Below are positions 1,700 through 25,487 of a stretch of DNA of 26,146 bases, piece after piece. The notes beneath the pieces are model-generated. The model had not been told where the DNA came from. It worked only from the letters and a program-made list of their open reading frames with translations, and did not search any database. The DNA lies in IMG/VR virus record IMGVR_UViG_3300024283_000178, positions 1 through 26,146 of that record. One strand, written 5' to 3'. Origin of the DNA: a virus (taxonomy: Duplodnaviria > Caudoviricetes). Positions within the stretch are counted from its first letter, which is position 1; every line of letters begins with the position of its first letter. The translations under genes and the position numbers were made by a program.

Positions 1700-2965
1700 T
1701 CACGGCCAGAGGGTCTTGAAGAATGCCACGCCGTTCGACAAGAACACCCTCGTCATGGTCACGCCGTTGGAATTCACATCCGAAAAGCTCATGTTCGCCA
1801 TGCCGTTTGTGACGCTGTAAAGGCTCCAAGTATTCGAGGGGTAATAAGCACCGTTGAGCATCCCCATTGGGGGAGTGATCGTGATGGTGTTTTGGTTGAA
1901 GGCTTGGGGCCAAAAGAAATATTGCGGCACGGTGGGCAAAATCGGGATCGTGAAGGTGACAATTCCGCTATTCGTGACGGTCGTATAATTGGTGAAGGTT
2001 GGCCACGCATAAAGGAGCGCCAGATTCGTGCTGGCCTTGATGCTCCAACCGACCACTAAATTGGTGACGGCGATGTTCAAAAGCAGGTTGGTTCCCGACT
2101 TGGAAAGACTGTTCGCGATCGTGAAAGTGGCATTGGCCACGTCAATGACCGTCAGGCCACCTTTTGAAAAAATTGAATGGTTGATTCCATTCGTGTCCCG
2201 CGATGTTCCAAACTGGCCGCTCAAGGCGTTGGCCAGCGTCACGTCCACGTAGTTTTTAGTGGCCGGATTCTGCGCCGTGATCGGGTCTGGGAAATTCCAG
2301 AATTGACCATCTGAATAATTGGTCCGGCCGTTGAGTTCAGGATGATCGATTCCATAGAGCGTGATGGCACCGGGCGCGGAATTACTCTCACCCACGACGG
2401 ACACCAGCACAGTGTTTGTGATGTTCAAGATGCCGGTAGTGTTCGTGAACCAGCTAGCGCCTCCGTTGGTGGAGAGGATCAGATTTTCCACCGAAACGCC
2501 GCCCGGTGTTAAGCCGACACCTGGAATGGTGGGAGGGATCAAGTTCCAAGACTGAAGCTGCGGGAAGCTACCCAGATAATTGCTTCCAGTGAAGACGAAA
2601 TTATTCGAGGAAAAAAGCGTGAAATATTTGCTGCTCAAAACGGCATTGGAAAGGTTGTAGGCCGTGATGGTGTTCGTGTTGGCCGCGATCAATGCACTAT
2701 TACTGGCGATTTGCGATTCAACAAAAATGAAGTCCAGGTTGAACTTGGTGAATGCGTCAAACAGCGTGTCGCCGACGATCACGTTGTTGCTACGCACGAC
2801 GGTATAAACGGCGTTCGTGCAGACGTTGGTAATCGTCATGAGACCGGTGCTGGTGTTCACGTTGGTGGTCAGCGTCGTGGTGTCCACGAATTGAAGGTTG
2901 GTTTGCGCGGCGAGGCGGCCGGCCAGCACCACGAGGGATGAGAGGATCAGGATTTTTATTTTCAT
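1700..2965 (-). CDS. Signal-peptide-bearing tail fibre-like protein
   Basis: MKIKILILSSLVVLAGRLAA-Q signal; GDTLFDAFTKFNLDF and PDPITAQNPATKNYVD fibre-like motifs; IKASTNL..W..QYFF motif; last gene of the tail module. Confidence 0.65.
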   Translation of the reverse strand: MKIKILILSSLVVLAGRLAAQTNLQFVDTTTLTTNVNTSTGLMTITNVCTNAVYTVVRSNNVIVGDTLFDAFTKFNLDFIFVESQIASNSALIAANTNTITAYNLSNAVLSSKYFTLFSSNNFVFTGSNYLGSFPQLQSWNLIPPTIPGVGLTPGGVSVENLILSTNGGASWFTNTTGILNITNTVLVSVVGESNSAPGAITLYGIDHPELNGRTNYSDGQFWNFPDPITAQNPATKNYVDVTLANALSGQFGTSRDTNGINHSIFSKGGLTVIDVANATFTIANSLSKSGTNLLLNIAVTNLVVGWSIKASTNLALLYAWPTFTNYTTVTNSGIVTFTIPILPTVPQYFFWPQAFNQNTITITPPMGMLNGAYYPSNTWSLYSVTNGMANMSFSDVNSNGVTMTRVFLSNGVAFFKTLWP

Positions 2966-2977
2966 AATTTTGATTGG

Positions 2978-4879
2978 TTAGAGTCCGCCGTCCACGTTGT
3001 TTGCGCCAGCGCCAGCGCCTTGGCTGGTGCTGCCCGCACCGACGTTGACGGCCGGCAGTGCAGTGAGATTTGGATATGTGATGTAACCAATGGCCGGAAC
3101 GTCAGTCACGTAAATGGATTCGGGGTGCGGATAATCAGTGCTCGGAAGCTCCTTGGTCATCTGCCAGAGGTAATTGCCGCCGCGCCCGTGTGGGAAGGTG
3201 AGTTTCGGAAATAGCGAACTGATGTCCACCAACGCGCCGCCGCCGATCTGCGCGCCGGGCTTATAGTAGAATTTCTGCGCAAAGTTGGTGGTGGGCGGTG
3301 CATGATGCGGGCTGTTGCCGGGGAGATAACCACGGCTCTTTGACCAAACCAGGCCGCTCGCACCAGTGACGCCGATGATCAACGGGGCTTCGTTGTATTT
3401 GACCGCGCGACCAGCCAGATAAAAAGGCATTGGCGTGCCACAGGTGACATTGGCGCTAATGACGAAAGAAGGGACTGGTAGTCCGTTCGAGGTCGCGAAC
3501 AAAATGATTTGACGGTTCGGCGATGTAGCATCGCCCAGCGCGAGTGCGATCCGGGTATAAGTCAACGCGAAGGGCATTAAGGTCACTGCGAACCCGGTGG
3601 GCGCACCAGTGGGCGTGGAGCCGGTCGAAACGAACGGGGCCGGCTCGGTGGTCACAGGCGATCCGACCGGCGCAACCACGGCGATGCTGATCGCAGCGGT
3701 GTTGCTGTTGCCGGGACCAGCCAGCGACTGAACGAAGTAAGAATAAGTTTGCCCAACCACCACTGTCGTGTCGGTGAAAGTATGAATCAGGCTGGCTCCT
3801 GGAAAGAGCAATGCAATTCGCGTATAGCTGCCAATCACGCCGGCGACCACGTCGGCGCGATACACATCAATGCGGATCGTATTGACCACCGGATTCCAAT
3901 CCAGACGCACCGTCATTGATCCGTCAAAGGTCCAATATCGTTCGCCGGAATTCGTCAGCGTGGTGGCATCCAACATCGCTCGCGCCTTCGTTTCCAGACC
4001 GGCAATTGAGACCGGATCGGAATAAATGGTCTCAGTCCGATACGAATAGATTTCCGTGCCGTAAAGGAATAGCTGATAAGGAGCCAGATGCGGGGAGCCA
4101 GGAATATAGCTCATGATATTGTCACCTGCTGAAGCACCAAAGGCACACAGCCCATTTACGAGGGATTGATGAATTTCAATGCTCGAAATATCCGTGGTCT
4201 TGTCATACGTGTAAACCGTGTTGGGCAGGCCGTATTCAGGGATGTAAGGCTGTGTGTTGCTTGTGTGCAAATCATCGACTCCGGCTTGCGCATCAAACGG
4301 AATTATCACACCGGCCGAACTGCCAATGCTGGATGGAGGGGTTCCCGTCTGCACCTCTGGGACAGACAGCGTTGCGCCGGTGACATTGAAGAACGAATTA
4401 TATTTGGAAGTCACTGTGCCGGCGCTGCCCGCTGTCACGTTGGCCGGTGCTGCGGGAAATGTGCTATAAACCGGATCGCTTAAATCATTCATGCAGTAGG
4501 CAGTGTCGCCCGTGTAGCCTGGTGGCGGGCTGTCAAAGCTTACAGACCCACCATCCGCGCAGCTGCCACTTCCATTGAGCGTCCAACCAAAACCGAGCAA
4601 GATACCAAGCCGCGCCGTCTGCTGCTGCGGAATGGTGTTGCTGTGCCCGCCATAGGTGAAGGTGTGAGACCAGGAGGTCGTCACGGTTTTTTTGGTGAAC
4701 AACCACGGAATCTTTGGGTCGGTCGTTATTCCGCCACCTTTGACCAGCACATTGCCATAGCCGGTATAGGGCAGGCACGAATGAACCGTCTTGACGCCGG
4801 CGGCAAAAACGCCACGCGCCTTCGCATGAGAACGGACGAAGGCTCGCGACCAGGATGATGCAAATGCGTTGCGTGACAT
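2978..4879 (-). CDS. Putative tail tip/receptor-binding protein with an FN3-like segment
   Basis: 633 aa, G/T/S/P-rich; VRLDWNPV..IDVYR..FTDTTVVVGQTYSYFVQS resembles FN3; distal tail position. Confidence 0.55.
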   Translation of the reverse strand: MSRNAFASSWSRAFVRSHAKARGVFAAGVKTVHSCLPYTGYGNVLVKGGGITTDPKIPWLFTKKTVTTSWSHTFTYGGHSNTIPQQQTARLGILLGFGWTLNGSGSCADGGSVSFDSPPPGYTGDTAYCMNDLSDPVYSTFPAAPANVTAGSAGTVTSKYNSFFNVTGATLSVPEVQTGTPPSSIGSSAGVIIPFDAQAGVDDLHTSNTQPYIPEYGLPNTVYTYDKTTDISSIEIHQSLVNGLCAFGASAGDNIMSYIPGSPHLAPYQLFLYGTEIYSYRTETIYSDPVSIAGLETKARAMLDATTLTNSGERYWTFDGSMTVRLDWNPVVNTIRIDVYRADVVAGVIGSYTRIALLFPGASLIHTFTDTTVVVGQTYSYFVQSLAGPGNSNTAAISIAVVAPVGSPVTTEPAPFVSTGSTPTGAPTGFAVTLMPFALTYTRIALALGDATSPNRQIILFATSNGLPVPSFVISANVTCGTPMPFYLAGRAVKYNEAPLIIGVTGASGLVWSKSRGYLPGNSPHHAPPTTNFAQKFYYKPGAQIGGGALVDISSLFPKLTFPHGRGGNYLWQMTKELPSTDYPHPESIYVTDVPAIGYITYPNLTALPAVNVGAGSTSQGAGAGANNVDGGL

Positions 4880-4882
4880 AAC

Positions 4883-5788
4883 TCAGACTTCCGCCCAGGC
4901 TGCCGACGAAAGAAATATCCACGGCACACCGACCAGCGTTGAAGGCGCGGTCGTGCTGAAAGCATTCGCCACGATGATCTTTCCCGGAATGACCGGCGGT
5001 GTGACGTAATTGATTTCGATGTTGCCGCTCGGATCAGTGGCGCTCCGCTTATATTCCGTGATGACGCTGGACACGGTAATGGCCGTGTAAGCATAGCTAA
5101 ACAAAATGCCGTCGATCGTCTCACTGGCGATCTTGCCAACGTCACACCGCAGCTCATAGGGCTTGGCCACTTTGATTACCGAGCCGCCGGCTGTGATGCC
5201 GTCCCATGTGTTGCAGTTCCAATAATCGCCACCGTCGCTGACGACTTTGAATTCCTGTGTGCCACCACCACCGCCAACCCTGGCCCATACACTGGTTGAC
5301 TTGCTACCGGACGTCGTGCAGACCCACATGGCCGGCGTGGCCGGCGTTGAGATGTCCAGGTAACCGTCCGGCGGTTGGAGTGCCAGGTTGAATGTCGCGC
5401 CCGTGCCGGTGCCGCCGGTCACCGTGATCGGATTGGTTGGGTATGCGGTATAAACGCCGACGCGACTGACATGCCAGTCGCTGATCTGCCCGGTCGCTGT
5501 GACGGCGTCCACCGTGATTTGCGGTTGCGTGGTAGCGGTGCCTCCGGCACCGGTCAGCACGTCGCCGGCGACGAAATTAATTCCCGCCGCGACCACTGAA
5601 ACCGCGACCACAAATCCACTCTGCGCCGCACAGTATTTTGCGTTACCGATTTGAAGCGTCGAAGCGGACGGCGCACCATTGCCGGTGAAGATACGCTGCA
5701 CGAGCAAGGGATCGTCCGAATAGACGCTGATGATCTGCGGCGCATTATTGACGACCGCGTGCGTGGCTTGAAATTTCGCGATGCTCAT
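4883..5788 (-). CDS. Putative tail fibre/accessory tail protein
   Basis: FTGNGAPS...DGYLD..T..MWVC fibre-type motif split by a Gly/Thr-rich insert (VTGGTGTGATF); follows the hub gene with a 1-nt gap. Confidence 0.55.
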   Translation of the reverse strand: MSIAKFQATHAVVNNAPQIISVYSDDPLLVQRIFTGNGAPSASTLQIGNAKYCAAQSGFVVAVSVVAAGINFVAGDVLTGAGGTATTQPQITVDAVTATGQISDWHVSRVGVYTAYPTNPITVTGGTGTGATFNLALQPPDGYLDISTPATPAMWVCTTSGSKSTSVWARVGGGGGTQEFKVVSDGGDYWNCNTWDGITAGGSVIKVAKPYELRCDVGKIASETIDGILFSYAYTAITVSSVITEYKRSATDPSGNIEINYVTPPVIPGKIIVANAFSTTAPSTLVGVPWIFLSSAAWAEV

Positions 5789-5789
5789 A

Positions 5790-7688
5790 TCAGTTCAGCT
5801 GGCGGTTGTTAGCCACATCGAGCGCACTGTTCTTCACGGTGGTGACTGCGCCACCGCCATCCACATAGGCATTATGCGACGTCACCGGCAGCGGATCGGC
5901 GGCAACGGAATTTTCCTGCGCATTATCGCTTGGCATATCCACCGTTGACCCCGGCGATGGCTGCCCCGTGACGCGCTCATTGGTGTCAATCTTGGTGAGA
6001 TCGCGATTGTTGAAGAGGTTGAACAACTGAACGAGCTGGCCGGCTTCGAGATGTTCCACCGGACCACAGCGCACCGTGAAGTTGTCGAACGTCGCGCCGG
6101 CACCATCGAGTCGCATCTTATATTCCGTGGACTGAACGGTGGCGCTCATCGTCGTCCACTCCGCAGCGCCGCCCGCCAGATTAACGGCGTGTTTACCGGG
6201 CTTGATCCAGCCATTAAACGGTTTTTCCACCACGGTGTGCGTCAGGTTGTATTGCAGCTGATTGAGCGCGGTGTAGATGTTTTGAGCGAGGTTGGCCGGC
6301 GTGGATTCACCTGTGGTGAGGAATTGACTGAACTGAAAATTGCGGGAAGGCAGATTGACCAGCTTGACGCGAACATGATGACGATGTTCCTTCATCTCAT
6401 GCGTGACGGTTTGATTGCTGCCGGGAATCGTCGTGGTTTTTTTATAGCGAAACACCGCCGTTACAGTTGCCTCAATGACCTGCACTCCGGTCATCCAGGT
6501 GAGAATGGAGCTTTTGGGATCAAGCTCGAATCCATAGGTCAGAATCGTATCAATGGCGTTGCCGGCGTCGTCTTTGACTTGGATGTCTTTTTCGCCGGAG
6601 CCATTGATCGTGGAAGAAAGCAGCGTCAGCACGCCGCCGCCGGACGCCGCCAATTGCCCGCCCTGGGTGACATCCTTGAGCGACGGCATTTTTTTGCGCC
6701 ACCAATTGAGATCAGTCGGATCAAACGCGGAGCTGGTGAGTTTTGCCGTGACCAGAATCGCCTTCGGGCCTTGTAGATCAATCGCAAAGTCCAGGGCGCG
6801 CAGCCCGGTCGTCACGGCTGGCGGATAAATGTCCTGCGGGGTCGAGATCAGATAGCCGGATGAAATCACGCGGTAGAAAAGAGCGACCCGCCGGGGACGC
6901 AATTCAGGGCGCGGCTGGATGTCAGTGGCCGTATGCCGCCGGCCCAGGTTGTCGGTGTAAGAATAAGGCAGTGCGATCGCGATGAGGTTCGTGCGCCGGC
7001 GGACATGGATCGTCGGGATGTTCGTCGAGTAATCAATCTCGGTGAAACAGTCGGGGTGGATGCGCAGGCACATCCTCAACGCTTCGGCGCATTTCAAATT
7101 TTGAACCGGATAGACTGCGCAATAACTCGCCGGGTCAATCGTGCCGATCTGAAGGTTTGCGCCCTGGCTGATGGCCCAGTTCAAAATGTCGGTGATCTGC
7201 TGGCCGGTCGAGATGAGGCCGCCCACGGCCGCCGGCGCGTAGACCTGGCCGGGATTGGGCTGAAAGAGAACGATATTGGTGAACGGATAGGCGACCGCGC
7301 CGCGATACCAAGTCTGGTAAAACGGGCAGTGTTCCAGGAAATACCATTCATCGTCGAAAACGTAACTACTGGAGGACCGGTTCGGATCGGCGGTGCCATT
7401 GCGGTCGGTGCGGAAGCCATCGAACTGTTTGGTGCCGCCCGAATAACCGAGGCCGCCCAGCGCCCGGTCGCTGTAGATTTTGACGCGGGATTCAAACGGG
7501 ATGGCCGGAGCCCGGTGCGGCGGCACGCCGGGCAAGCGCAGGCTGAGCCTGGACGATTTATGAGACTGAAACTGCGCCGTCCAACCGTCACTCACCACTT
7601 TGCCGCCTTCCAACTTGGCGAGATCAGGAAAGCTCATTTCCTGCGTCACGCCATTCGCATCAACAAATTGGATCGTCCAGAAGGTCAT
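5790..7688 (-). CDS. Putative baseplate hub/tail tip protein
   Basis: 632 aa directly after the tape measure (ATGA overlap); QITDILNWA..CAEALRMCLR..EIDYS..PTIHVRRR pattern consistent with hub proteins. Confidence 0.6.
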   Translation of the reverse strand: MTFWTIQFVDANGVTQEMSFPDLAKLEGGKVVSDGWTAQFQSHKSSRLSLRLPGVPPHRAPAIPFESRVKIYSDRALGGLGYSGGTKQFDGFRTDRNGTADPNRSSSSYVFDDEWYFLEHCPFYQTWYRGAVAYPFTNIVLFQPNPGQVYAPAAVGGLISTGQQITDILNWAISQGANLQIGTIDPASYCAVYPVQNLKCAEALRMCLRIHPDCFTEIDYSTNIPTIHVRRRTNLIAIALPYSYTDNLGRRHTATDIQPRPELRPRRVALFYRVISSGYLISTPQDIYPPAVTTGLRALDFAIDLQGPKAILVTAKLTSSAFDPTDLNWWRKKMPSLKDVTQGGQLAASGGGVLTLLSSTINGSGEKDIQVKDDAGNAIDTILTYGFELDPKSSILTWMTGVQVIEATVTAVFRYKKTTTIPGSNQTVTHEMKEHRHHVRVKLVNLPSRNFQFSQFLTTGESTPANLAQNIYTALNQLQYNLTHTVVEKPFNGWIKPGKHAVNLAGGAAEWTTMSATVQSTEYKMRLDGAGATFDNFTVRCGPVEHLEAGQLVQLFNLFNNRDLTKIDTNERVTGQPSPGSTVDMPSDNAQENSVAADPLPVTSHNAYVDGGGAVTTVKNSALDVANNRQLN

Positions 7689-9211
7689 CTGTGATTTTCA
7701 AGCGACGCCAGGACTTGAGCCTTCAGCCTGGTGAAGGCTTCATCAATCGTTGCCTGCTTGGTAATCATTAATTGGAGTAAGTCGTTCGTCTCCTTGGCGG
7801 TCGCGTGATGGCCGAGAATTGCATCCGCGAGCTTTTGTTTTGTCGCGGCTTGCTCCTTGGAAAGTTTGCCGCCGGCATGTTCAACCTGGGAATAATCCTG
7901 AAGCAAACGCACATCGCGGCGGGCGGTGTCATTCGCCTGCCGGTTGGTTGCAACTGGATCGACGGTGGGCGTTCGATTATTCAGATCGTTGAGTGGCGAA
8001 TAAACATTTGCGTTCGGATTGGAACGCAGTGCGGCCACGGCCTGCGCTTGCTGGATGTCTGCCGGCAGTTCCCTGATACGACGCTGGTTTTCCAGGTTGG
8101 CCGCCCGCGCCGCTTCAAATGCGTGGTCGGCATCGGCCTTGGCTCTCGCTTCCGCAGTCAGACCGGCTTCGAGTTGTGACTGGCGCGTCGTCACGTTGTC
8201 TAATTCTTTCAGAGCACGTTGAAGCTCCTCTTCGGCGGCCTTGTTTTCATAATCTTCACCACGCCGATAATTTGGCACTCCAAATGGATCGATTTTAAAG
8301 GAGTATCCCTTCGTCCTTTCGACGTTGGCCTCAGCCTTGGTTACGTCATCAGATTTTTGCTGGCGCAAATTGTCCAACTCCTTTTGAGCAGCTTGAAGTT
8401 TCTGGCGGGCCGCGATGGCCGGCCCTTCGGCGGCGGCTTCGCGTGCGGCCAGCGGTTCTCGGTCCTGTTTTCGTTTATCCAGCTCGGCTTGCAACAATGC
8501 CAGGTCGCCGGCGGGTTTGGCAGTCTCCAACGCGCGCAATTTATCTGCGGTCGCCTCTTTTGATTGGCGAATCTTTTCTTCCATTTCCGCGTGAGTCAGA
8601 TCGTTTTTTGCCGCATTGCGACGAATGTAAGCCTCCTCTTCCCGGCCGGCCATCTCAATAGCATTCTTGGAACCTTCGATCCGGGCGGCTTCCAATTCCT
8701 TCTCACGGGCGATGGCAGTTTTGATCGGATCATTATCTTCGCCGACATGCATCATGTCCGACTGATATTTTCCCAGCGAGATTTTCGCGTCATCCCAAAG
8801 CTGCTTTAGACTCGCGACATTGGCCTGGTGTTCGGCCAATTGTTCTTCGTTCAGCTTTTCGGTCGCCTCGCTGATTTCATCGATGTGCTTTTTTATTTCG
8901 TTGGCGATCGTGGCCAGGGCAATGAGAGCACCGATTGGTCCCATCGCCAGCGCGGCCAGCGCGTGGCCGGCTCCAGGCGCGGAAGCCTCACCGATTTGCT
9001 TCAACAGCAGGTGCAGCGCTTTATGGCTGACATGGGAATGTTCTGCGGCTTCCCCGCCCTTCTCCATTTCCTCGCCAAGTTTTTTTGTGGCCGTGCCGGT
9101 ATTGCCCAGTTCGATCTTCAGCGCCGTCGCCTGTTCGCGCGTGAGTGTGAAGCCGGTGACGTCAGCGAACGTCTTGATGAAGACTTCCAGAGATTTTGAG
9201 GCATCGGCCAT
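7685..9211 (-). CDS. Tape measure protein (short)
   Basis: 508 aa, Ala/Glu/Lys-rich helical, N-terminal LEVFIKT, hydrophobic LAALAMGPIGALIALA segment; precedes the hub gene. Confidence 0.7.
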   Translation of the reverse strand: MADASKSLEVFIKTFADVTGFTLTREQATALKIELGNTGTATKKLGEEMEKGGEAAEHSHVSHKALHLLLKQIGEASAPGAGHALAALAMGPIGALIALATIANEIKKHIDEISEATEKLNEEQLAEHQANVASLKQLWDDAKISLGKYQSDMMHVGEDNDPIKTAIAREKELEAARIEGSKNAIEMAGREEEAYIRRNAAKNDLTHAEMEEKIRQSKEATADKLRALETAKPAGDLALLQAELDKRKQDREPLAAREAAAEGPAIAARQKLQAAQKELDNLRQQKSDDVTKAEANVERTKGYSFKIDPFGVPNYRRGEDYENKAAEEELQRALKELDNVTTRQSQLEAGLTAEARAKADADHAFEAARAANLENQRRIRELPADIQQAQAVAALRSNPNANVYSPLNDLNNRTPTVDPVATNRQANDTARRDVRLLQDYSQVEHAGGKLSKEQAATKQKLADAILGHHATAKETNDLLQLMITKQATIDEAFTRLKAQVLASLENHR

Positions 9212-9226: not shown

Positions 9227-9745
9227 TTAACGAGTTTGGGCGTTCGTGAGTTCAAGACTGGGAGGCATACCGTTAGACTGCACGGTGACGATATTGGTGC
9301 GGCGGATGTTTGCGCCGCCGGGTTGAAAGAATTGACAATCTTGGACGGGATAAATCAGAAGGTGATTGGTCTGGGCCGGATTCCATCCGCCGTTGAGATT
9401 GGTGCTGCTGAACAAATAATAATCCACCAGCAGCGCCGGCGTGTTGGTGACGACGGCAATATTACTGAATGGACTCATGATCAGTTCGCCGTTGATGGCC
9501 TGGTAATCCGACACCGCAAAATAATTCGGGCCGTCCACCAGCGTTCCCTGGTAAACCAGGTTGGTGGCCAAGCCCACGCCGTATTGTTCATAGATCGTTC
9601 CCGGCGCCCAATGACTGAGGACGTAGCCTTGCGGCGTGCCGTTGGTGGGCGCGACCCAAGCGAACTCCAATGCAAAAGCTGAAATGCTGGAAACCTGAAA
9701 CGCTAAAATCAGCAGCAACAGGCGAATGGCTGGCGGTTGGTTCAT
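9227..9745 (-). CDS. Secreted FN3-like protein with STNL-W C-terminal motif
   Basis: Signal MNQPPAIRLLLLILAFQVSSISAFA; FAWVAP..GYVL..NYFAVS..SPFSN FN3-like pattern; SSTNLNGGW..QFF. Confidence 0.65.
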   Translation of the reverse strand: MNQPPAIRLLLLILAFQVSSISAFALEFAWVAPTNGTPQGYVLSHWAPGTIYEQYGVGLATNLVYQGTLVDGPNYFAVSDYQAINGELIMSPFSNIAVVTNTPALLVDYYLFSSTNLNGGWNPAQTNHLLIYPVQDCQFFQPGGANIRRTNIVTVQSNGMPPSLELTNAQTR

Positions 9746-10482
9746 GGTGCCGGAACAAAGGTGAAGCCGTTGGTGGACGGGTTGACGACGAGCGAGAATT
9801 TTGACCCGGCCGCATTGGTTAAGATCAGCCCCGAACCGTCGCCAAAAATGTGATTAACTGAAATATCCCCGTTCGTATTCCACCACCATGGGATGGTGCC
9901 ACCCTGCATGATGACGTAAACATAAGGACTTCTTTGCTGATCGATGCTAGCAACAAATGGGATATTGCCATTAGTTGACGCAATTTGGATGCCACGATAG
10001 CCGTAGATGCGGTCACTGACCGTTAAGTTTCCATATAAATTAACAAGTCCGGTTTGATTATTGGTCAACGCATTCGGTTTATTCGTGAGCAGGTTGTAAT
10101 CGAACGTGCCACCGCCGCCGGGCGACCACCCGGCATATGTCACCAGTCCGTTCGTGATGAGGTTGATCACATTCTGCACTGTGTTGGTGATGGGCACGGA
10201 AAAGCGCAGTGGCACGCGGGATTCGGGAGCAGTTAGAATGTAATCGTTCGGCTGCAGGCTGCGCACCGGGTTGGTGGCACCGGTCCGCGTGATGGTCATG
10301 AACGATCCGGTGTAAAGGTTGGTGCCATCTGTCAGCCACGGATGAACGGCCGTGACCGTGATGCTCTTGGAATAGGCCGAGCCGTTGAAAAAGGATTGCA
10401 GCGGAAACTCGACGAGCGTGCCTCCAAGGCAAATGCTGAAAAGCTGAAAGCTGAAAGCTGAAAGCAAAAGGATTTTTTTCAT
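9742..10482 (-). CDS. Signal-peptide-bearing fibre-like protein (start reassigned to ATG 10482)
   Basis: MKKILLLSAFSFQLFSICLG signal; DYNLLTNKP, FGDGSGL and C-terminal LILTNAAGSKFSLVV fibre-like motifs. Confidence 0.6.
   Translation of the reverse strand: MKKILLLSAFSFQLFSICLGGTLVEFPLQSFFNGSAYSKSITVTAVHPWLTDGTNLYTGSFMTITRTGATNPVRSLQPNDYILTAPESRVPLRFSVPITNTVQNVINLITNGLVTYAGWSPGGGGTFDYNLLTNKPNALTNNQTGLVNLYGNLTVSDRIYGYRGIQIASTNGNIPFVASIDQQRSPYVYVIMQGGTIPWWWNTNGDISVNHIFGDGSGLILTNAAGSKFSLVVNPSTNGFTFVPAP
10435..10465. repeat. Heptamer tandem repeat (GCTGAAA)n inside signal-peptide coding region
   Basis: GCTGAAAA GCTGAAA GCTGAAA GCTGAAA GC. Confidence 0.9.
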
Positions 10483-10505
10483 AATTGGGTGCAGGCCGCG
10501 CCTGC

Positions 10506-12916: not shown

Positions 12917-12931
12917 AATGCTAGTTTAGAA

Positions 12932-12958
12932 TTGGTGAGTTAGTGAGTTGGTGAGTTA
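12932..12958. repeat. Octamer tandem repeat (TTRGTGAG)x3, intergenic
   Basis: TTGGTGAG TTAGTGAG TTGGTGAG TTA. Confidence 0.8.
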
Positions 12959-15158: not shown

Positions 15159-15159
15159 G

Positions 15160-15640: not shown

Positions 15641-15675
15641 TAAAAAGCGGCGGAGGTTTTGCGGCCTCCGCCGCT
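15641..15675 (-). terminator. Intrinsic terminator closing the head transcription unit
   Basis: 11-bp stem AGCGGCGGAGG/CCTCCGCCGCT (15646-15675), followed on the minus strand by a T run. Confidence 0.75.
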
Positions 15676-16402: not shown

Positions 16403-16428
16403 TTTTTATTCGATTGAATTTAAGTTGC

Positions 16429-16463
16429 GCGCAGCGGCCGCCAGTCACGGCGGCCGCCGCACA
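16429..16463 (-). promoter_or_regulatory. Strong RNA hairpin just after the major capsid stop (mRNA stabiliser or partial terminator)
   Basis: GCGGCCGCC-6 nt-GGCGGCCGC core, extendable with G-U pairs on the minus strand; no U tract. Confidence 0.55.
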
Positions 16464-16467
16464 TTGG

Positions 16468-17948: not shown

Positions 17949-18452
17949 TCACTTGATTTCGCGGGCGGCCATCGCGGTGGCGGTAGCCAGGCCGATGCTG
18001 GGGATTTCTTTCATGATGTTCGTTGCGCGGTTCATCACCTTGACGGCGCGCTCCTGTTCAGCCGCTTCGTCGGTTTCTTCGCCCGTCTGTGCACTCGCAG
18101 CGCCAGTGCCGCGATTCAGCACGCGAGTCGTGGTGGTTTTTTCACCGCCGGCCTTGAAGCCGCAGTCGGTGAGATAACCAACCCGATCAGCGCGGTCCTT
18201 CAAACCAGTTAGGACCGGCTTGAGACGGTTGATGACCTTGGTGTCGGTGATTTTGTGTTCGACCAGGATGCCGTCCACCTGCTCGCCCAGGAGCGTTTGG
18301 TTTTGCGTCTCAAGTTCCGTCTTGCGGTTCTTGAGCGGCGTCAGTTCCGCTTCGGCGGTCGTGGCGCGGTTGAGGATTTTGGTCACTTCCGCGAGGATGG
18401 CGTCTTCGCTTGCCTCGGCGGCGAGACCAAGTTTCGTTGCGATGCTTTTCAT
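17949..18452 (-). CDS. Nested in-frame scaffold protein (Mu gpZ-like)
   Basis: Internal ATG at 18452 preceded by the A-rich leader CAACAAAAAAACAACCAAGTAAAACAA; begins MKSIATKLGL. Confidence 0.6.
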   Translation of the reverse strand: MKSIATKLGLAAEASEDAILAEVTKILNRATTAEAELTPLKNRKTELETQNQTLLGEQVDGILVEHKITDTKVINRLKPVLTGLKDRADRVGYLTDCGFKAGGEKTTTTRVLNRGTGAASAQTGEETDEAAEQERAVKVMNRATNIMKEIPSIGLATATAMAAREIK

Positions 18453-19016
18453 TTGTTTTACTTGGTTGTTTTTTTGTTGGTTAGCCGCCGATGGATCTTC
18501 ATCAGCGAAAGTGGTGGCCGTCTGCAAAGACCTGTTGGTGATGGGCGTTAAAAGTTCCTTGCCGTTGGCCTGGTTGGTGAAGCCGACCGTCTCGATGGCC
18601 ATCACGCGGTATTTGTTGCCTTCGATTTTTTTCAGGTCGCCGCGATCCGCGACGAAGCTGGTGAATTTATATTCGCGATTCTTCACCGCGTTGTCCCCGG
18701 CCGGCGTCAAGCCATCGTCCTTGGCCCAGATGCCGTCGTCGCGTTTTTCAAAATCCTTGAACCAGGCGAGCGCGGCACTGTCCTTGTCCGGATCGTAAAT
18801 GAAATGTTCGCGGCCGGCGTAGATGCCCGGCCAGTTGTCGCCCAGCCGGTTCTTCGCCTTCTCGATGCTGGCAAGGATGGAATCAAGCGCCGGCTCGTCG
18901 AGCACCTGCACCAGCTTGGCTTCGCTGTTGGGCAGCTCCCCTTTCGGCACGATGTGAATCCAGCCGTTGGTTGATACGAGGGGCGCGCGGTTAAAAATGA
19001 TGACGTGGGATTTCAT
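17949..19016 (-). CDS. Prohead protease/scaffold (Mu gpI-like)
   Basis: GWIHIVPKGE, REH, AALAWFK, REYKFTS, VGFTNQ motifs followed by KLGLAAEASEDAILAEV scaffold region. Confidence 0.85.
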   Translation of the reverse strand: MKSHVIIFNRAPLVSTNGWIHIVPKGELPNSEAKLVQVLDEPALDSILASIEKAKNRLGDNWPGIYAGREHFIYDPDKDSAALAWFKDFEKRDDGIWAKDDGLTPAGDNAVKNREYKFTSFVADRGDLKKIEGNKYRVMAIETVGFTNQANGKELLTPITNRSLQTATTFADEDPSAANQQKNNQVKQMKSIATKLGLAAEASEDAILAEVTKILNRATTAEAELTPLKNRKTELETQNQTLLGEQVDGILVEHKITDTKVINRLKPVLTGLKDRADRVGYLTDCGFKAGGEKTTTTRVLNRGTGAASAQTGEETDEAAEQERAVKVMNRATNIMKEIPSIGLATATAMAAREIK

Positions 19017-20695
19017 GGTTTGGAAACGGGTTTATCTTTTAGTCCGGCGAGCAAGGCGGCGGCATTGGCCTGATCCAGGGCGCGCGCAGATTCAGGATCG
19101 GCGGTGATGTCGGCAACGAGCTGATCCCAGTCGGCGAGCAACGCCTGGAGTTTCTGTCTGCGCAGATCAGGATCGGCAATCGCTTCGATGACGGTGAGGC
19201 GGTCGCGCAACAATTTCAGATCGTCGGCCACGGCCGCCGTGAATGCGTCTGCACCCGGCACGCCGGCCCGGTTCTGAATCTTGGTGTCTTTTTCCAGCAG
19301 GCTTTCATCCTGTTGCGCCGCCGGGCCATTCGGCTTGGCCGCGCGCGTCAGTTTATATCCGCTGCGCTCACTGATCTCCTTTGCGTCCGTCTGCAAGCCG
19401 ACACCTTCGAATTTGACGACCGTGTCCGCCACGGTGTTGACATCTTCATCATCCTGGACGGCGAGCGTGAACTGCGCACAAACCGGCTGGCCGGGAAATT
19501 CAGCCTCGAGTTCCTGCGCATCGAAATCTTTGCGCAAAGTTTCGTTGACGCGCTTACCCTTCATCTTGGCGATCTTTTCCCAAACATCGTGATGCTGTTC
19601 GCCGGGGCCTTTATTGAGTCCGCCGCCGGAACCACCGCCGCCATGCGTCAACATGGTGAGCAGGCCGCTGGTGGCGGCCATCACCACGTCTTCATTCTGC
19701 GCGTTGCAGAATGTCTCGAAGGGCGATTCACCACGCACACCAGCGGTCGGGAACTTGATGTCGCTCCCGGCCGGGAGCGCACCACTCACACCATCGGAGA
19801 CTTTTTCCGCCGCTGCCTGGTAGTCGGCCTCCTTGCCGACCTGAATGTTTGGCGGCATGATGACCACGCCCTTGGCCAAGCCGAAGATTTCCACGAACGC
19901 CGCCCAATCCTTCCGCCCCATCAACCAGTTCACGAATGCGATCAATGCGATCTCATAAAGGGGTGACTCGACTTCGCGGATGACGAAATCTTCGCGAGGC
20001 ATCGCTTCGCTTCCGATCCGGCAATTTTCGCCGAAGGTGGATTTGCAAGCACCGAGGCCGACACCGAATCGGGAAATCTCATTATAATAGAAGTCGCCAT
20101 AATAACCGTCGCGCGACCAGGCCCACGGCTCAAGCCAGTAAAGTTCCTGCACGGCCCCATCATTATCGCCGCCTTCGTAATAGTGTTTCTGCAAAACAGC
20201 ATATCCCCGGATGTCCGCCATCACGATCTGGCCGATGGCTTCATTGATGTTCCCGATCAGATCGTAACGCGAGCGCAGATAAGCGCGTTGTTTCTCCGCC
20301 ATCTCAGCCGTGGCACCTGGCGGCAGGACTTTCATCACCTTCACGTCCCAGTCCAATTCTTCAACGCTGGCCAGCAACCGTTCAATGAAGCCCTTGAGCG
20401 TCGGATAACGCTTCTCAGTTTTGCGCAGTAGCAATTGCAACTCCGCATAAGCGCCGCGCTCGGCCGCTTCGAAGATCGTGATGAGCCGGCCCATGACCAG
20501 GCCGCGCAGCGGGTTGTAATTATCCCGCCAGAGATTCGACTTTCGGACCATCTGCGCGTCCGTCTTGCCCGTGCCGAAGGCAGCATAAGCGTCGGCCGTC
20601 GAAGGCGTGGACGGCGGCGCACTGGCGGTCGTGGCCGGCTTGCCGGTGGCCTGCCTGGCGCGGATCCTTTTCGGGATGGATGCAGACTTAGCCAC
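19013..20695 (-). CDS. Portal protein (Mu gp29/DUF935-like); start reassigned to GTG 20695
   Basis: IFEAAERG, ADIRGYAVLQ, KDWAAFVEIFGL motifs; GGGAGGT Shine-Dalgarno upstream of the GTG. Confidence 0.88.
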   Translation of the reverse strand: MAKSASIPKRIRARQATGKPATTASAPPSTPSTADAYAAFGTGKTDAQMVRKSNLWRDNYNPLRGLVMGRLITIFEAAERGAYAELQLLLRKTEKRYPTLKGFIERLLASVEELDWDVKVMKVLPPGATAEMAEKQRAYLRSRYDLIGNINEAIGQIVMADIRGYAVLQKHYYEGGDNDGAVQELYWLEPWAWSRDGYYGDFYYNEISRFGVGLGACKSTFGENCRIGSEAMPREDFVIREVESPLYEIALIAFVNWLMGRKDWAAFVEIFGLAKGVVIMPPNIQVGKEADYQAAAEKVSDGVSGALPAGSDIKFPTAGVRGESPFETFCNAQNEDVVMAATSGLLTMLTHGGGGSGGGLNKGPGEQHHDVWEKIAKMKGKRVNETLRKDFDAQELEAEFPGQPVCAQFTLAVQDDEDVNTVADTVVKFEGVGLQTDAKEISERSGYKLTRAAKPNGPAAQQDESLLEKDTKIQNRAGVPGADAFTAAVADDLKLLRDRLTVIEAIADPDLRRQKLQALLADWDQLVADITADPESARALDQANAAALLAGLKDKPVSKP

Positions 20696-20918
20696 GGCAC
20701 ACCTCCCGTGAAGAGTTGAGGGCAAAAACCCGGAACAGGGCTGCCCCCCCGATTTTGGACTCATTCAAGCCATCTGACGATGCCTTGAAGACGCACCACG
20801 AGCCTTGAATAGCCACCTTTGACATCCTGCGCGCGTCCAAGTGGCTCAAAATCGTCCCAGGGGCATCCAGCGCGACGGATAGGTGGTTAAAATGGGTGAC
20901 CATACGCAAGGATTTCAT
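20688..20918 (-). CDS. Small hypothetical protein between TerL and portal
   Basis: ATGA overlap with the TerL stop and 8-nt overlap with the portal start; no recognisable motif. Confidence 0.35.
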   Translation of the reverse strand: MKSLRMVTHFNHLSVALDAPGTILSHLDARRMSKVAIQGSWCVFKASSDGLNESKIGGAALFRVFALNSSREVCRG

Positions 20919-22510
20919 CCGGCAATGCTCCGATCCCGCCGACTGGCGATAACCCGCCCAGAACGGGAATTTTCAAAGACGTAGATCTTGCCGGGCTCCA
21001 GCAAGGATTCAGATGCGCGAATTGCCAGGGCGAAGGCCCAGAAGTGGTCGGCGTGACCGGCTTCATCCCGAACGGCCGCGATGCTGACCTTGCCACCAGG
21101 GGAAGTGATCCGCTCCGGCTTGCGCAAATCGTCAATCGCATCATTGTCCAACTCGACCTCAATCGTGATGGACTTGCCCTCGAAGCAACCAAGCAGCGCG
21201 GTGGCCATGTTTTCAGTAACCCTGGCCTTTTCTTTTTTCTTGCCCTCGGACTTGAGGTAATTGTTGATGGGCTCGGTTGTGGAAAAATCAATGCCTTGAA
21301 TCCGTTCACCGCCCCACGGCTCCTCCTGGGCATATTCCACCAGACCGAGGCCGAGGCCGGTCATATCAATGCACGCACCCCGGAATTTCGGCAGCTTGCA
21401 AACCAGATCCAATTGCGCCTGCTGGTCTGGCAGCCGCATTCCCGCCATCCGCAACATTCCAATGATGCGCTTGGAGTCGCCGTCCTTTTCCAAAACCGCT
21501 TGCACCGAAAGATCGCGATGCCGGCCCACGTCCTGGCCAAGGTAGAGATCACCTTTTGCCCGGAACATCCGCGCCATCGCAACCGGCGACCATTGCTGGT
21601 CATCAATCGGGATTCCTTCGCGCATGGCCTGCGTGATCAGCTCACTGGTGAGCAGACACATGTTTTCATCATTGAACGCGCATTCGTAATTTTGATCGTA
21701 TGCCCGTTTATCTAACGATTTTTTGCGCGCTTCATCGGGTGTGATCGGCTTCCGCGAGTTGGCGTCATAGACTTTGACGCCCATCTTCCATGCCTCCGAA
21801 CGGGTGACCCGGCAGACCTTGAATCCCGCCGTCGAGGTGAAGACAGTGCCGTCATTGGGACCAGATCCGGCGCACATGCGATAAAACATGTTGTGCTTGC
21901 CATTGCCGGTGGACGCGATGCGGCAGAGGAATTCGGGATTGCTGGAAAGGATCGGCTCGGCCGCCTCCCAAATCGCGTTGCTGTCTTCATGGAAAGCAAA
22001 TTCGTCGAGAATGAGATCACCAGAAAAGCCGCGAGCCGTGCGAGGGTTTGCCGCCAGCACCTTGATGCGGCCGACGTGTTCAACTCCGCTGACGATCCGG
22101 GTGATCCGGATTTCCATGCGCATGTTGTCATAAACGAGATCAGGAGAATCGTCGGAGGATTCAAACGCCGCGCCAGCCACCTTGCAGGCCTGCGCCGCCT
22201 TCAGACAAAATTCCGCACCATTGTCCCGCGAATTGGAAAGCACGGTGACCAGCCAGGTGGGATTGGTTTCGAGCTGCTTGACCAGGCGCGCAACCGCCCA
22301 ATTGGCGAGCGTGTAGGATTTTCCGATCTGCCGGGACCAATGCAGGATCAGCAAACCGGATTCGTTATCCCAAAACACCGGCCGCTGATAAACGCGGAAG
22401 CCCACCACCGGACCCGTGACGGGTGCCAATTGATGGGAAGCGAGTTCCAACGCCGCGACCTTCAACGGCCGTGGGCGATTCGCCTTGCTAGTTTTAGTGC
22501 GGGGCGTCAT
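20915..22510 (-). CDS. Terminase large subunit (Mu gp28-like); start reassigned to ATG 22510
   Basis: Walker A SRQIGKS, ARGFSGDLILDEFA Walker B, STGNG, nuclease GQDVGR, IDMTGLG, HADHFWA. Confidence 0.95.
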   Translation of the reverse strand: MTPRTKTSKANRPRPLKVAALELASHQLAPVTGPVVGFRVYQRPVFWDNESGLLILHWSRQIGKSYTLANWAVARLVKQLETNPTWLVTVLSNSRDNGAEFCLKAAQACKVAGAAFESSDDSPDLVYDNMRMEIRITRIVSGVEHVGRIKVLAANPRTARGFSGDLILDEFAFHEDSNAIWEAAEPILSSNPEFLCRIASTGNGKHNMFYRMCAGSGPNDGTVFTSTAGFKVCRVTRSEAWKMGVKVYDANSRKPITPDEARKKSLDKRAYDQNYECAFNDENMCLLTSELITQAMREGIPIDDQQWSPVAMARMFRAKGDLYLGQDVGRHRDLSVQAVLEKDGDSKRIIGMLRMAGMRLPDQQAQLDLVCKLPKFRGACIDMTGLGLGLVEYAQEEPWGGERIQGIDFSTTEPINNYLKSEGKKKEKARVTENMATALLGCFEGKSITIEVELDNDAIDDLRKPERITSPGGKVSIAAVRDEAGHADHFWAFALAIRASESLLEPGKIYVFENSRSGRVIASRRDRSIAG

Positions 22511-23184
22511 TGATTGCCGGGCCGAGGTTCGGTCGGTGCCTTGCCGAAGAGTTTCTCCATGAACATTTGCGTCTTCTCGGATTCCGAGAGCGTCTTGTTC
22601 GAGGCGATCACCTTGAGCGCCGGCAACGCCTTGAGGCATGCCTTGGCCGCATCGAACTCGAATTGTTCGCGCGCCAATTTGAACTGCTCTTTCATCCGCG
22701 CTTCCGATTCCCGCTTCAGTTCCAGCTTGGCGGTTTCCAATTGGGCGTTGAACTTGGCCGTCTCCTGGTCCAGATCCAAACGCATCGTCGCGCGCCCTTC
22801 CTTGAAGTCGCCCGTCACCAGGCTGCGCCGATAGGACGCACCCAACACCATCTCGCGGATCTGCTCCTTCGAGAGCGAGTCGCCAAATTCCTTGATGAAA
22901 AACTTCTCGTCCGACGCCATCCGCTCCGATTCGTCCTGGCGTTTCTGTTCGTCCGCATCCCACTTTCGGAAGCGCACGATCTGATCGTCGTCCGTCAGAT
23001 TGATGCCAAACTTGAGCCGCAACGATTCCCGCGTGTCCCGCGTGGGCGTGGCCGAAACAAACTGCCCACGCCAGTAATCCCACTGCGAGTCGGTGAACTT
23101 GTCGCGCCACAATTCCTTGAACCGCGTCAACTCCGAGGGCGCGGCGCCCACCGGATTGGCTTTCAGTTTTGTTTTGGCCTTCAT
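22507..23184 (-). CDS. Terminase small subunit (Mu gp27/DUF3486-like, putative)
   Basis: Directly upstream of TerL with ATGA overlap; N-terminal HTH-like region, C-terminal coiled coil. Confidence 0.65.
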   Translation of the reverse strand: MKAKTKLKANPVGAAPSELTRFKELWRDKFTDSQWDYWRGQFVSATPTRDTRESLRLKFGINLTDDDQIVRFRKWDADEQKRQDESERMASDEKFFIKEFGDSLSKEQIREMVLGASYRRSLVTGDFKEGRATMRLDLDQETAKFNAQLETAKLELKRESEARMKEQFKLAREQFEFDAAKACLKALPALKVIASNKTLSESEKTQMFMEKLFGKAPTEPRPGNQ

Positions 23185-23338: not shown

Positions 23339-23355
23339 TTGATTGCCAGTGTGGC

Positions 23356-23628
23356 TCACACCATCTCCAGGCGCGCGGCCTCGCCAGCGTCGCTGATGCT
23401 CCATTTCATTTTGCCCGCGAACTTGGATGGCACGCCGATGGTCCATTTTTTGACGTCGCAAATTTTAATGACGGTCTCCACCTCGGTAGCGCTCGGTTTG
23501 GGATGCACCGCCGGATCGCGCAAGATGGCCGCGTGGATCTCCAGTTCGATGGCCTGGCCGCCGTCGAGCGAATGCAGATAGTCGAGCGCCGCCTTGCACA
23601 ATGAGATTTCGCGTTGGGTCAGATTCAT
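23356..23628 (-). CDS. Small winged-helix-like protein (Mu gp26 position)
   Basis: 90 aa ending KWSISDAGEAARLE; same position as Mu gp26. Confidence 0.55.
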   Translation of the reverse strand: MNLTQREISLCKAALDYLHSLDGGQAIELEIHAAILRDPAVHPKPSATEVETVIKICDVKKWTIGVPSKFAGKMKWSISDAGEAARLEMV

Positions 23629-24056
23629 GGTTGCTTGCCTTTCAATTTGTCGAACAGGTCCAGCGTGGCCTTGAGCTGATCAATCATCTTCTTGGGCAGC
23701 TCATCTATGCGGCTGTCCAGCGCTTCGATCAGGGAAGCCAGATGCTCTTCACGGACAGCCCCGGCTTTGAGGATGGCCTTGTTTTCATCCGATAGATTCT
23801 TCAGCTCGCGTTCGAGCTTCGATTCGCGCTGGTTCCATTCCAGCCGGGTGATGTAGTCACCCTTGGGCTGGTAGTCACCGATGGGCTGAAATTCCTCGCG
23901 GGCCTTTTCCATCATCTCCGCGCCCGTTGGCTTGTCTTTGATGTTGCGCCAAAAATCCATGGCAGCGTTCGCCCCCATGAAGAGGAACATCAGGCAGGCG
24001 CAGAATCCGGCGATCATCACCGGCGGGTCGTAGGCGGATAATTCAGCGAGCAGCAT
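23625..24056 (-). CDS. Single-TM coiled-coil protein (Mu gp25/DUF2730 position)
   Basis: TM MIAGFCACLMFLFMGANAAM followed by coiled coil; between lysis genes and the gp26-like gene. Confidence 0.6.
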   Translation of the reverse strand: MLLAELSAYDPPVMIAGFCACLMFLFMGANAAMDFWRNIKDKPTGAEMMEKAREEFQPIGDYQPKGDYITRLEWNQRESKLERELKNLSDENKAILKAGAVREEHLASLIEALDSRIDELPKKMIDQLKATLDLFDKLKGKQP

Positions 24057-24059
24057 AAA

Positions 24060-24845
24060 TCAGGTTGAGAGTCGGGGAGTTGAGAGTTGAGAGTCAGCCA
24101 GAGCCGTGGTGTAGTTGACCATCTTGTGGTCGTGGATCGGGTCCATCGCGCCGGTGAATTTGCTGATAATGAACGCGCGATAGATTCCCCAAGCATCGCT
24201 GGCCAGCAACCGCACGAACGACGGCGCAGCGATCAAGCCGCCAAAGGAAGGCAGGAAAATTTCCAAGCCAACATGCCGGTAAGGGTCCGTGACGGACGGC
24301 AGATGCGGCACGCGCGCGACGATGTCTTCCTGATAAACCACTCGGAACGTGGATGCGCCCAGGGAAAAATCGTAGAGCCGCTTGAACGCCGCGTTGCCGA
24401 CGCGTGGCTGCCCAAAGGTGTAAACCTGGGCGATGTTGAATCCCTGCCGCTTCAGTTCCAGCGCCACCAGGATCGCCAACGCGCCACCGAGGCTATGGCC
24501 GGTGATGTAAACCGGGCGCGAACCGGCGACGATGCAAGATAGATGATGGCCAAGATCGGCAATGATGCTTTCGTAAGCCGCCAGAAAACCGCGATGCACT
24601 TCGCACCGGTCGCCGTTCGCTTCCTCGACGAGCAGCTCCCGGAAAAATTTCGCGTCGGTGACAAAATCACGCGCATTGCTCGTGCCGCGAAACGCGATGA
24701 TGACGCAGCCGGCCTGCTCGATCACGAGCGCCTGCGTATCCGTCACCTGGTTGCTGACCGTGGGCCGGGCTGAGTAAGCGGCGGCGCTGGCGGCAGCGCA
24801 TTCGCGGGCGTTGACCAGGTCAAAGGTGGTGGCAGTGAGATTCAT
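24060..24845 (-). CDS. Class 3 lipase (alpha/beta hydrolase); start reassigned to ATG 24845
   Basis: IAFRGT, VHRGF, ITGHSLGGALA nucleophile elbow, YTFGQPRVGN, DIVARVP, C-terminal DH. Confidence 0.93.
   Translation of the reverse strand: MNLTATTFDLVNARECAAASAAAYSARPTVSNQVTDTQALVIEQAGCVIIAFRGTSNARDFVTDAKFFRELLVEEANGDRCEVHRGFLAAYESIIADLGHHLSCIVAGSRPVYITGHSLGGALAILVALELKRQGFNIAQVYTFGQPRVGNAAFKRLYDFSLGASTFRVVYQEDIVARVPHLPSVTDPYRHVGLEIFLPSFGGLIAAPSFVRLLASDAWGIYRAFIISKFTGAMDPIHDHKMVNYTTALADSQLSTPRLST
24064..24093. repeat. Degenerate (GTTGAGA)n heptamer repeat at the lipase 3' end
   Basis: GTTGAGA GTCGGGGA GTTGAGA GTTGAGA; encodes SQLSTPRLST. Confidence 0.75.
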
Positions 24846-24964
24846 GGCCGATCGCTCCTCCGATTCAACAGGATCAAGGCGAGACCGCCCGCCGCCGCGA
24901 TGCCGGCAATGAAGCCGACGACCGCGCCTGATCCGAATCCGATAAATGTGCAAAGCGTGTTCAA
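24842..24964 (-). CDS. 40-aa single-TM peptide (holin-like candidate), not in the ORF track
   Basis: TTG start; (M)NTLCTFIGFGSGAVVGFIAGIAAAGGLALILLNRRSDRP; stop overlaps the lipase ATG (ATGA). Confidence 0.55.
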   Translation of the reverse strand: MNTLCTFIGFGSGAVVGFIAGIAAAGGLALILLNRRSDRP

Positions 24965-25055
24965 TTTTTCACTTCCGGTTTTCTGGGACTTTTACCGTGA
25001 ACCCATCTTTCTGTTTGCGTTAGTGACCGCCGCAGCGGTGCGTTTAATTTCTTGG

Positions 25056-25487
25056 CTAATGAGAAACCGGCGTCAGGTTGTTGCCCGTTCCGGTGGCTGA
25101 GTTGATTGGTTCGTGCTGGCCACCGATGATGGTGTTGACCGCGTTTGTTCCGCCCGTGGCGACGGTGGTCGTCATGGCTGCATTGCCGAAGACAGCGCTG
25201 TGACCGTACATCTCGTAGGAGCTGGTGAACTGCGGAATGACCGACGCGTCGGACGGCTGCGCATTGGTGCCGTTCAAGCCGGTCGGGACTTTCACGTATT
25301 CGACCTGACTGCGACCGACCATCAGCTCATAAACCTGCGTGGCCGGGTTCTGACCGATCTTGATGCCGGTCTGCGTGACTGTGACCTTCGTCACGTCTTT
25401 CGTATTGACGGCCGTGGCGCAGCCGGTGACTAGCGTGATGGCCAATGCGGCTGTCGCCGCGATGAGGAGTTTGATTTTAGTTTTCAT
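25056..25487 (-). CDS. Lipoprotein, first gene of the late operon
   Basis: MKTKIKLLIAATAALAITLVTG-C lipobox. Confidence 0.8.
   Translation of the reverse strand: MKTKIKLLIAATAALAITLVTGCATAVNTKDVTKVTVTQTGIKIGQNPATQVYELMVGRSQVEYVKVPTGLNGTNAQPSDASVIPQFTSSYEMYGHSAVFGNAAMTTTVATGGTNAVNTIIGGQHEPINSATGTGNNLTPVSH

Follow-up and report, generated by a model that had tools for sequence, protein, structure and literature searches.

Relation to described phages

Assembly of tailed phages is taken to be entirely cytoplasmic. Virion proteins that pass Sec with a cleaved leader are known from filamentous phages, where they are the coat proteins of particles extruded through the membrane. Here we analyzed a stretch of 26,146 nt (virus record IMGVR_UViG_3300024283_000178, positions 1 to 26,146; the window below means this whole stretch), which corresponds to G000:C135:43443-69588, G000 being the host genome. 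The window is the late-gene operon of a Mu-like prophage whose host likely belongs to Limisphaerales, and in contrast to filamentous phages this is a phage of the head-and-tail type with a cytoplasmic core. Predicted export leaders were found in genes lying within its head and tail modules. We hypothesize, with a probability of about one half, that the encoded spikes and fibres leave the cytoplasm by export, likely acquire sugars, and attach to completed particles when the cell lyses. Viruses of this type are known; the assembly route would be new. In the literature covered (titles and abstract openings, with few subscription journals), we found no description of tailed phages that export virion parts through Sec.

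The likeness to Mu consists of Portal_Mu, Mu protease I, the terminases and a candidate MuB-like ATPase, together with the order of lysis slot, membrane coiled-coil gene, small gene and terminase. In Mu, the slot is outlined as comprising a signal-arrest-release (SAR) endolysin, spanins, and the membrane protein gp25 (PMC9239132). The window differs from Mu in its predicted Dit-type non-contractile tail, in a lipase that takes the place of Mu's SAR endolysin gp22, and in the leader-bearing genes within the head and tail modules. For its capsid protein, 0 matches were obtained among 50,697 GenBank phages. Lipases in lysis cassettes were described before (PMC12173070), and the window resembles mycobacteriophages with LysB and the Psa phage lipase in having a lipolytic enzyme there. 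The Psa lipase, however, adjoins holin and endolysin, whereas the window-type lipase has no endolysin beside it in 18 loci.

Two tail-region genes of lambda are also comparable. The lom gene is leader-bearing, co-oriented and located between J and stf, and the window genes share the leader, the orientation and the place inside the tail region. Lom is nevertheless an outer-membrane protein, whereas the window genes have spike- or fibre-like predicted folds, keep the same structural genes as neighbours and occur fused to head proteins. The side fibre Stf (phage_tail_N, PF08400) may resemble one window family in its beta-rich N-domain of ~100 aa, its variable distal part and its tie to the distal tail protein. 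On the other hand, Stf is leaderless, there is no significant sequence likeness, and the window gene is placed after the Dit-like gene and before the tape measure. In Ur-lambda, twelve Stf N-domains are reported to form an outer collar on gpV/gpM, and laboratory lambda is reported to be without Stf side fibres (PMC12617516). Because laboratory lambda is without these fibres and the N-domain collar is external, such parts are add-ons.

Predicted export leaders in the head and tail modules

Leaders were called by a heuristic n-region/h-region/AxA rule. The original prediction described four tail-module genes with N-terminal signal peptides, and the rule called all four in open reading frames (ORFs) that exist on the minus strand (1700-2965, 9227-9745, 9742-10482, and 10506-11225). 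An internal signal peptide had also been proposed for the post-capsid gene 15698-16402, and a single hydrophobic stretch was indeed found there at residues ~77-93, ending in AHA↓D. Co-orientation and close spacing or overlap with structural genes were confirmed as well; all belong to a single minus-strand operon running from 25487 to 1700 after a host gene that we take to be smc-like. The gaps around the three-gene tail cluster (ORF starts at 10482 and 11225 among them) are 8, 23, -4 (an ATGA overlap), and 15 nt; 2965 is preceded by 12 nt, and the capsid gene is followed by a gap of 65 nt. The rule made a single false call in the window (13687-14349). Its false rate was 28 of 3000 random internal windows (~1%), and among the core genes of relatives it called 0/82 proteases, 0/68 pre-capsid genes, 1/78 portals, and 4/38 terminases. 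At least one leader gene was present in 38 of the 56 loci having 8 kb downstream of the capsid gene.

Within the leader of 10506-11225, at 11139-11166 of the window, several contigs of runs X2 and X3 have a short stretch in common and then diverge. Short inverted or repeated words were also seen in the coding DNA of other leaders.

Post-capsid jelly-roll protein

The gene 15698-16402 (minus strand) encodes a fusion of a small head-module protein (residues 1-62), a Lys-rich linker, the internal signal peptide and a 139-aa jelly-roll domain. Residues 1-62 are a candidate cytoplasmic small head-module protein, and the jelly-roll part is a candidate capsid spike or decoration. In six relatives, residues 1-62 form a separate gene of 64-76 aa located after the leader gene. 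The fusion is not an assembly error, because an independent sequencing run spans 15769-17235 without a differing letter and the protein P0011 has the same fusion. A frameshift or lost stop was likewise rejected as its origin, given the independent run, the other fusions, and the opposite order of the two genes in relatives.

A search profile made from six mature jelly-roll domains defined a family of 249 clusters at 50% identity. The predicted leader stands directly before the domain in 140 of the 150 best proteins, at the N-terminus in 119 and after a longer N-terminal part in 21; of the remaining 10, seven lack N-terminal sequence and three are below the threshold. To place the family, 239 capsid loci were gathered (one self-match excluded), and a capsid gene was called in 226 of them, which reduced to 122 representatives at 90%. 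By comparing loci with at least 700 nt downstream, the family was found as the first gene after the capsid in 17/21 close, 0/7 mid-distance, and 3/83 distant relatives, and 29 of the 83 distant relatives had some leader gene among the first two after the capsid. In a domain-only search, not conditioned on the capsid, 6 of 401 genomes matched, and the capsid gene precedes the domain gene in 6/6, the capsid being assigned in two of the six by position and size only. No copy of the family was present among the called host genes.

The AlphaFold2 (AF2) model of the domain reached a predicted local distance difference test (pLDDT) score of 92 and is a predicted jelly-roll. A decoration or spike role is consistent with this fold together with the gene beside the capsid gene, the fold alone being unspecific. 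In other clusters, a second kind of N-terminal partner is fused to the domain. Furthermore, in six distant loci (L189, L138, L152, L166, L117, and L277) a head-tail adaptor continues through an internal leader into a long fibre-like part; other loci have the adaptor and the fibre-like gene as separate genes.

The leaders of the family members P0010, P0027, P0093, P0094, P0136, and P0141 presumably begin like prepilin N-termini. Hydrophobic N-terminal extensions of ~40-180 residues were observed in 5 of the 122 capsid genes (L003 at 9845-10930, L122, L073, L077, and L076), and the L003 capsid gene has no ATG at the usual start. A terminator-like 13-bp hairpin follows the fusion gene (15646-15675, T run on the minus strand). 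Such a terminator is not a general feature of the post-capsid gene, the hairpin being found in 1 of 19 relatives.

Candidate side fibres next to the Dit-like gene

The Dit-like distal tail protein (11234-11665, minus strand) obtained an Atlas feature score of 0.95 and template modelling (TM) scores of 0.69-0.73 to Sipho_tail/SPP1_Dit clusters. The gene that follows it (10506-11225, minus strand) encodes a signal peptide, a conserved 100-aa N-domain and a variable tail, and is a candidate side fibre. The next one (9742-10482, minus strand) is a second signal-peptide gene and candidate side fibre, and the two align over the shared N-domain. In this fibre family the N-domain is constant and the length varies up to ~1200 aa. 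A leader was called in 56 of 68 longer homologues, five lacking N-terminal sequence; in the query profile, the leader columns come from 2 of 13 rows. Members lie directly 3' of the Dit-like gene in L224, L202, L120, L221 (where the leader is weak), L030, L034, and L032, and in L202 a homologue of 9742-10482 also follows it. Leader conservation in homologues, on which the original prediction depended, was found in the jelly-roll and fibre families; for 1700-2965 and 9227-9745 the loci contain no homologue.

A Stf-like anchor fold is tentatively predicted for the N-domain: its Atlas structure gave TM scores of 0.64-0.72 to viral and phage_tail_N clusters, which is under the naming bar. No Pfam match (PF08400 included) was obtained for 13 family members, and there was no PDB sequence match for the N-domain. 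Our own AF2 model of the N-domain was poor (pLDDT 54), with Z scores below 4 in the fold search and 3.0 for the Ur-lambda chain. The predicted complex of the Dit-like protein with the N-domain scored 0.00, the fold of the partner being uncertain.

The two other tail-module leader genes are 9227-9745 (minus strand, 172 aa, 41 Thr-Asn per 1000), which we take to have an FN3-like look, and the last late gene, 1700-2965 (minus strand, 421 aa, 38 Thr-Asn per 1000), which presumably contains a fibre-neck-like motif.

Thr-Asn signature of the predicted exported parts

By comparing 655 exported with 1431 cytoplasmic proteins of the host, Thr-Asn was identified as the strongest common dipeptide bias of the exported proteins. 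The observed/expected ratio was 1.97 in exported vs 1.39 in cytoplasmic proteins (9.5 vs 2.9 per 1000 residues), and no enrichment was observed in the exported set for Asn-Thr (0.86) and Ser-Asn (0.84). In the window, the five predicted exported parts contain 46.6 Thr-Asn per 1000, the core 4.3 and the leaderless tail tip 4.5. Taken singly, the five proteins range from 26 to 54 per 1000 and are at or above the 95th percentile of the host's exported proteins. Close relatives show the same difference between exported and core proteins (37 vs 5 per 1000). Moreover, the bias is one-sided within single polypeptides: fusion proteins have 2 pairs in the 1661 residues before the leader vs 110 in the 2201 after it, and adaptor fusions 1 in 810 vs 44 in 2369. 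In the jelly-roll domain, four Thr-Asn columns are conserved (94-113 of 122 divergent sequences).

These pairs are possibly glycosylated. The host has two genes resembling TMEM260, which is described as an O-mannosyltransferase (PMC10214176). STT3 was not found in the host genome (93.7% complete), and no report of a Thr-Asn sequon turned up in the literature covered. The 139-aa domain with its four conserved pairs would be a small, well-folded reporter for an undescribed Thr-Asn signal.

Lipase lysis cassette and host wall

The first gene of the lysis slot (25056-25487, minus strand) was called a lipoprotein by the heuristic rule (LVTG↓C23) and has a spanin-like position. It is followed by an open frame for a 40-aa, possibly holin-like peptide with a single hydrophobic stretch (24842-24964, minus strand), which overlaps the lipase start at 24845 and matched no Pfam or PHROG family. 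The slot occupied by the endolysin in Mu encodes a leaderless class 3 lipase (24060-24845, minus strand) that matches Lipase_3 (PF01764) with an E-value of 1.4e-32 and has the GxSxG motif (GHSLG at 116), Asp and His; only 1 of 120 homologues was called with a leader. Next to it, 23625-24056 (minus strand) encodes an N-terminal membrane segment and a coiled coil, which by place and topology resembles the Mu gp25 releasin and has no DUF2730 match. The small gene before the small terminase (23356-23628, minus strand), presumably Mu gp26-like, has a homologue in the same place in L003.

The earlier claim of a class 3 lipase without a recognisable peptidoglycan hydrolase was upheld, as no Pfam peptidoglycan hydrolase was found among the 29 window ORFs. 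Nor was a canonical endolysin detected elsewhere in the prophage, among 27 genes of the likely early region (contigs C54 and C112, with a short gap unassembled). The lipase is present in 15 other genomes of 400 searched, in 18 loci. It lies at most three genes from a gp25-like gene in 17 of the 18 other loci and has a lipoprotein or leader gene at most two genes upstream in 14 of 17. Among 90 called (of 93) neighbours within 1.5 kb of the 18 lipase loci there was no wall hydrolase, and the lipase search of viral contigs gave 0 matches. Of 34 capsid loci, 6 have a wall hydrolase upstream of the terminase (a lysozyme, three amidases, and two CHAP, one of them under the cut-off), and in four of these six (L086, L066, L096, and L112) leader genes follow downstream of the capsid gene as well. 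In L173 a lipase-like gene adjoins a phage lysozyme, and the middle region of L001 contains a leader-bearing gene for an RlpA-like lytic transglycosylase.

Two lysis-slot genes of relatives were also recorded. A dual-specificity-phosphatase-like gene (L007:14178-14681), likely a lipoprotein, lies directly before the lipase in the relative L001. L120:1569-2363 has no Pfam match; we take it to have a permuted NlpC/P60-like look, and it could be another lipid-acting enzyme.

Neither MurD nor MurE was found above the cut-off in the host, which keeps MurA and two penicillin-binding proteins and has only three Mur-ligase matches. This suggests that the host wall is unusual. The host division cluster (G000:C132:19048-33873) is contiguous without murD, murE, and likely murC, and keeps murA, a MurF-like ligase, mraY, and murG, gene names that are our own assignments. 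MurD is missing in 31 of 81 near-complete genomes of the order and in 7 of 10 tested lipase hosts (of 15), five of the seven coming from one family, so the association between lipase cassette and MurD loss is suggestive only. Loss of MurD was rejected as the full reason for the missing endolysin, since G138 and G206 are MurD-positive without an obvious endolysin (a few slot genes scanned) and MurD is present in 3 of 10 lipase hosts. Both the lipase cassette and the missing MurD and MurE open the wall chemistry of these soil bacteria to experiment.

Two SLT-like genes (G000:C136:464-919 and C23:6739-7371) were rejected as prophage hydrolases, being set among host genes without a Pfam match. They are related to an ORF carried by the relative L002.

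Proposed assembly route and alternative explanations

We propose that head and tail are built in the cytoplasm, while the predicted capsid spike and side fibres would be sent via Sec into the periplasm. There, the leaders would likely be cleaved and the parts possibly glycosylated at Thr-Asn pairs. The lipase cassette would then likely break the inner membrane, so that the exported parts could dock on finished particles. Cleavage of the fusion protein would leave the small head protein tethered to the inner membrane by its spent leader, and this tether could hold heads near the exported pool. The export account is favoured because of the fixed gene positions, the add-on folds, the cleavable-looking leaders, the one-sided Thr-Asn bias, and the ordinary lysis genes in some carriers. 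Normal lysis is indicated by relatives that combine leader genes with ordinary endolysins. Of the maturation at or across the inner membrane originally predicted, the addition of fibres in the periplasm or at lysis fits best, and release in a lipid envelope or vesicle is less supported.

Several points weigh against this export account. The leaders were called by a heuristic rule and not by SignalP, and no homologue of 1700-2965 or 9227-9745 was found among 7294 proteins from the loci and the host. The jelly-roll gene is dispensable, being absent after the capsid in 4/21 close, 7/7 mid-distance, and 80/83 distant relatives, and the structure matches of its domain are unspecific (best Z 8.8, with the phage 7-7-1 capsid chain at Z 7.1 and rank 50). 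Against the lambda Stf sequence, the fibre N-domain obtained an hhalign probability of 0.4%, and 261 of ~1000 shuffles scored as high; because this likeness is not significant, the Stf reading is carried by the Atlas lead and by gene position. Thr-Asn richness points to export, which would be common to cell-surface proteins too, and the sequon of human TMEM260 is reported to differ from Thr-Asn (bioRxiv 10.64898/2026.09.21.753134). The account also offers no explanation of how particles would pass the wall in the absence of an endolysin, with 3 of 10 tested lipase-cassette hosts having MurD. The virion location of the leader proteins, and any sugar on them, are what we infer.

The main rival, which we consider rather unlikely, is that the leader genes are cell-surface morons, i.e., Lom/Cor/Llp-like envelope conversion genes derived from fibre or decoration genes, whose products block receptors or rival phages and are never on the particle. 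The precedent of lom, the dispensability and variability of the leader genes and a Thr-Asn richness that suits any exported host protein all agree with it, and 9227-9745 and the end of 1700-2965 may resemble host surface modules. The jelly-roll gene is, however, fixed directly after capsid genes, likely including other capsid families, the fibre family keeps its place behind the Dit-like gene, and fusions to the head-tail adaptor and head proteins recur. Signs typical of morons, such as an own promoter or terminator, odd base composition and variable position, were not found: promoter-like sites numbered 9 vs 8.0 expected in a sigma-70 scan, which may miss the host's promoters, and the GC content at third codon positions of the leader genes (0.63-0.72) is like that of their neighbours, so there was neither a promoter excess nor a base shift. 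It is improbable that the leaders are instead membrane tethers, on which head and tail parts would assemble at the cytoplasmic face of the inner membrane and be trimmed by a protease. The five extended capsid genes, with the missing ATG in L003, would suit such tethers, and adaptor and head-protein fusions would anchor core parts. Single h-regions ending in AxA-type sites across 140 proteins argue against them, as does the rise of Thr-Asn only past the leader, which is expected if that part is outside.

More improbable still is that maturation takes place across the inner membrane and the particles exit enveloped by membrane or inside vesicles, the lipase remodelling lipid without wall lysis. 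The lack of a wall hydrolase in the prophage and among the lipase neighbours, the host without MurD and MurE above the cut-off and the existence of membrane-tethered head fusions are consistent with it. It is disfavoured by the leader genes standing alongside CHAP or amidase endolysins in the four loci named above, by the lysozyme beside the lipase-like gene in L173 and the transglycosylase of L001, by a tail of ordinary Dit type, and by the leaderless nature of the lipase. As a tentative and rather doubtful extension of the export account, a widespread group of tailed phages of the Planctomycetes-Verrucomicrobia-Chlamydiae (PVC) superphylum may split their assembly over two compartments, with a periplasmic Thr-Asn system of the host sugar-coating the exported spikes and fibres to give a host-glycosylated virion, the lipase exit reflecting a wall without normal cross-links, and some virions being membrane-tethered via head fusions. 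If export to the virion is true, the export signals conserved across hundreds of clusters of capsid-linked and fibre-like genes would imply a second assembly compartment. A bacterial virus would then reach host glycosylation as eukaryotic viruses use the secretory route, and the addition of exported outer parts at lysis would be an assembly route new to tailed phages.

Other genes of the prophage and related elements

The remaining late genes are all on the minus strand. They include the likely small terminase (22507-23184, by position), the large terminase (20915-22510, PF03237 and phrog_2), the Mu-type portal (19013-20695, PF06074, E-value 6e-25) and the Mu-type protease I (17949-19016, PF10123, E-value 4e-15), the last two above the cut-off, and the major capsid protein (16468-17409, phrog_1005, E-value 8e-15). 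The genes in 12005-15609 had no Pfam or PHROG family match; from their position we take them to be the head-tail adaptor, neck genes and likely tail tube, and their homologues stand in the same order in relatives. The likely tape measure (7685-9211) was assigned by position and composition, and three leaderless tail-tip genes, poor in Thr-Asn, lie within 2978-9211.

The prophage is spread over three contigs, with a short gap between contigs unassembled. Its likely early region lies on C54 and on the initial 4.5 kb of C112, contigs whose ends have a pentapeptide-type repeat in common. C54, which is not joined to the window, contains an AAA_22 gene (E-value 9e-6, just below the cut-off); the 721-aa neighbour of this gene has no Pfam match and matches the same gene of relatives. 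The relative L001 carries Phage-MuB_C.

Head-only cassettes (portal, protease, and capsid) occur amid host genes in L021, L023, L026, and L028, all of one family, with no tail genes nearby. In L030-L035 (G132, G300, and G178), three genomes of one family carry the same head-tail element at a single site in the chromosome. The stretch read contains no obvious transposase or MuB gene, and the element is a candidate domesticated, gene-transfer-agent-like element.

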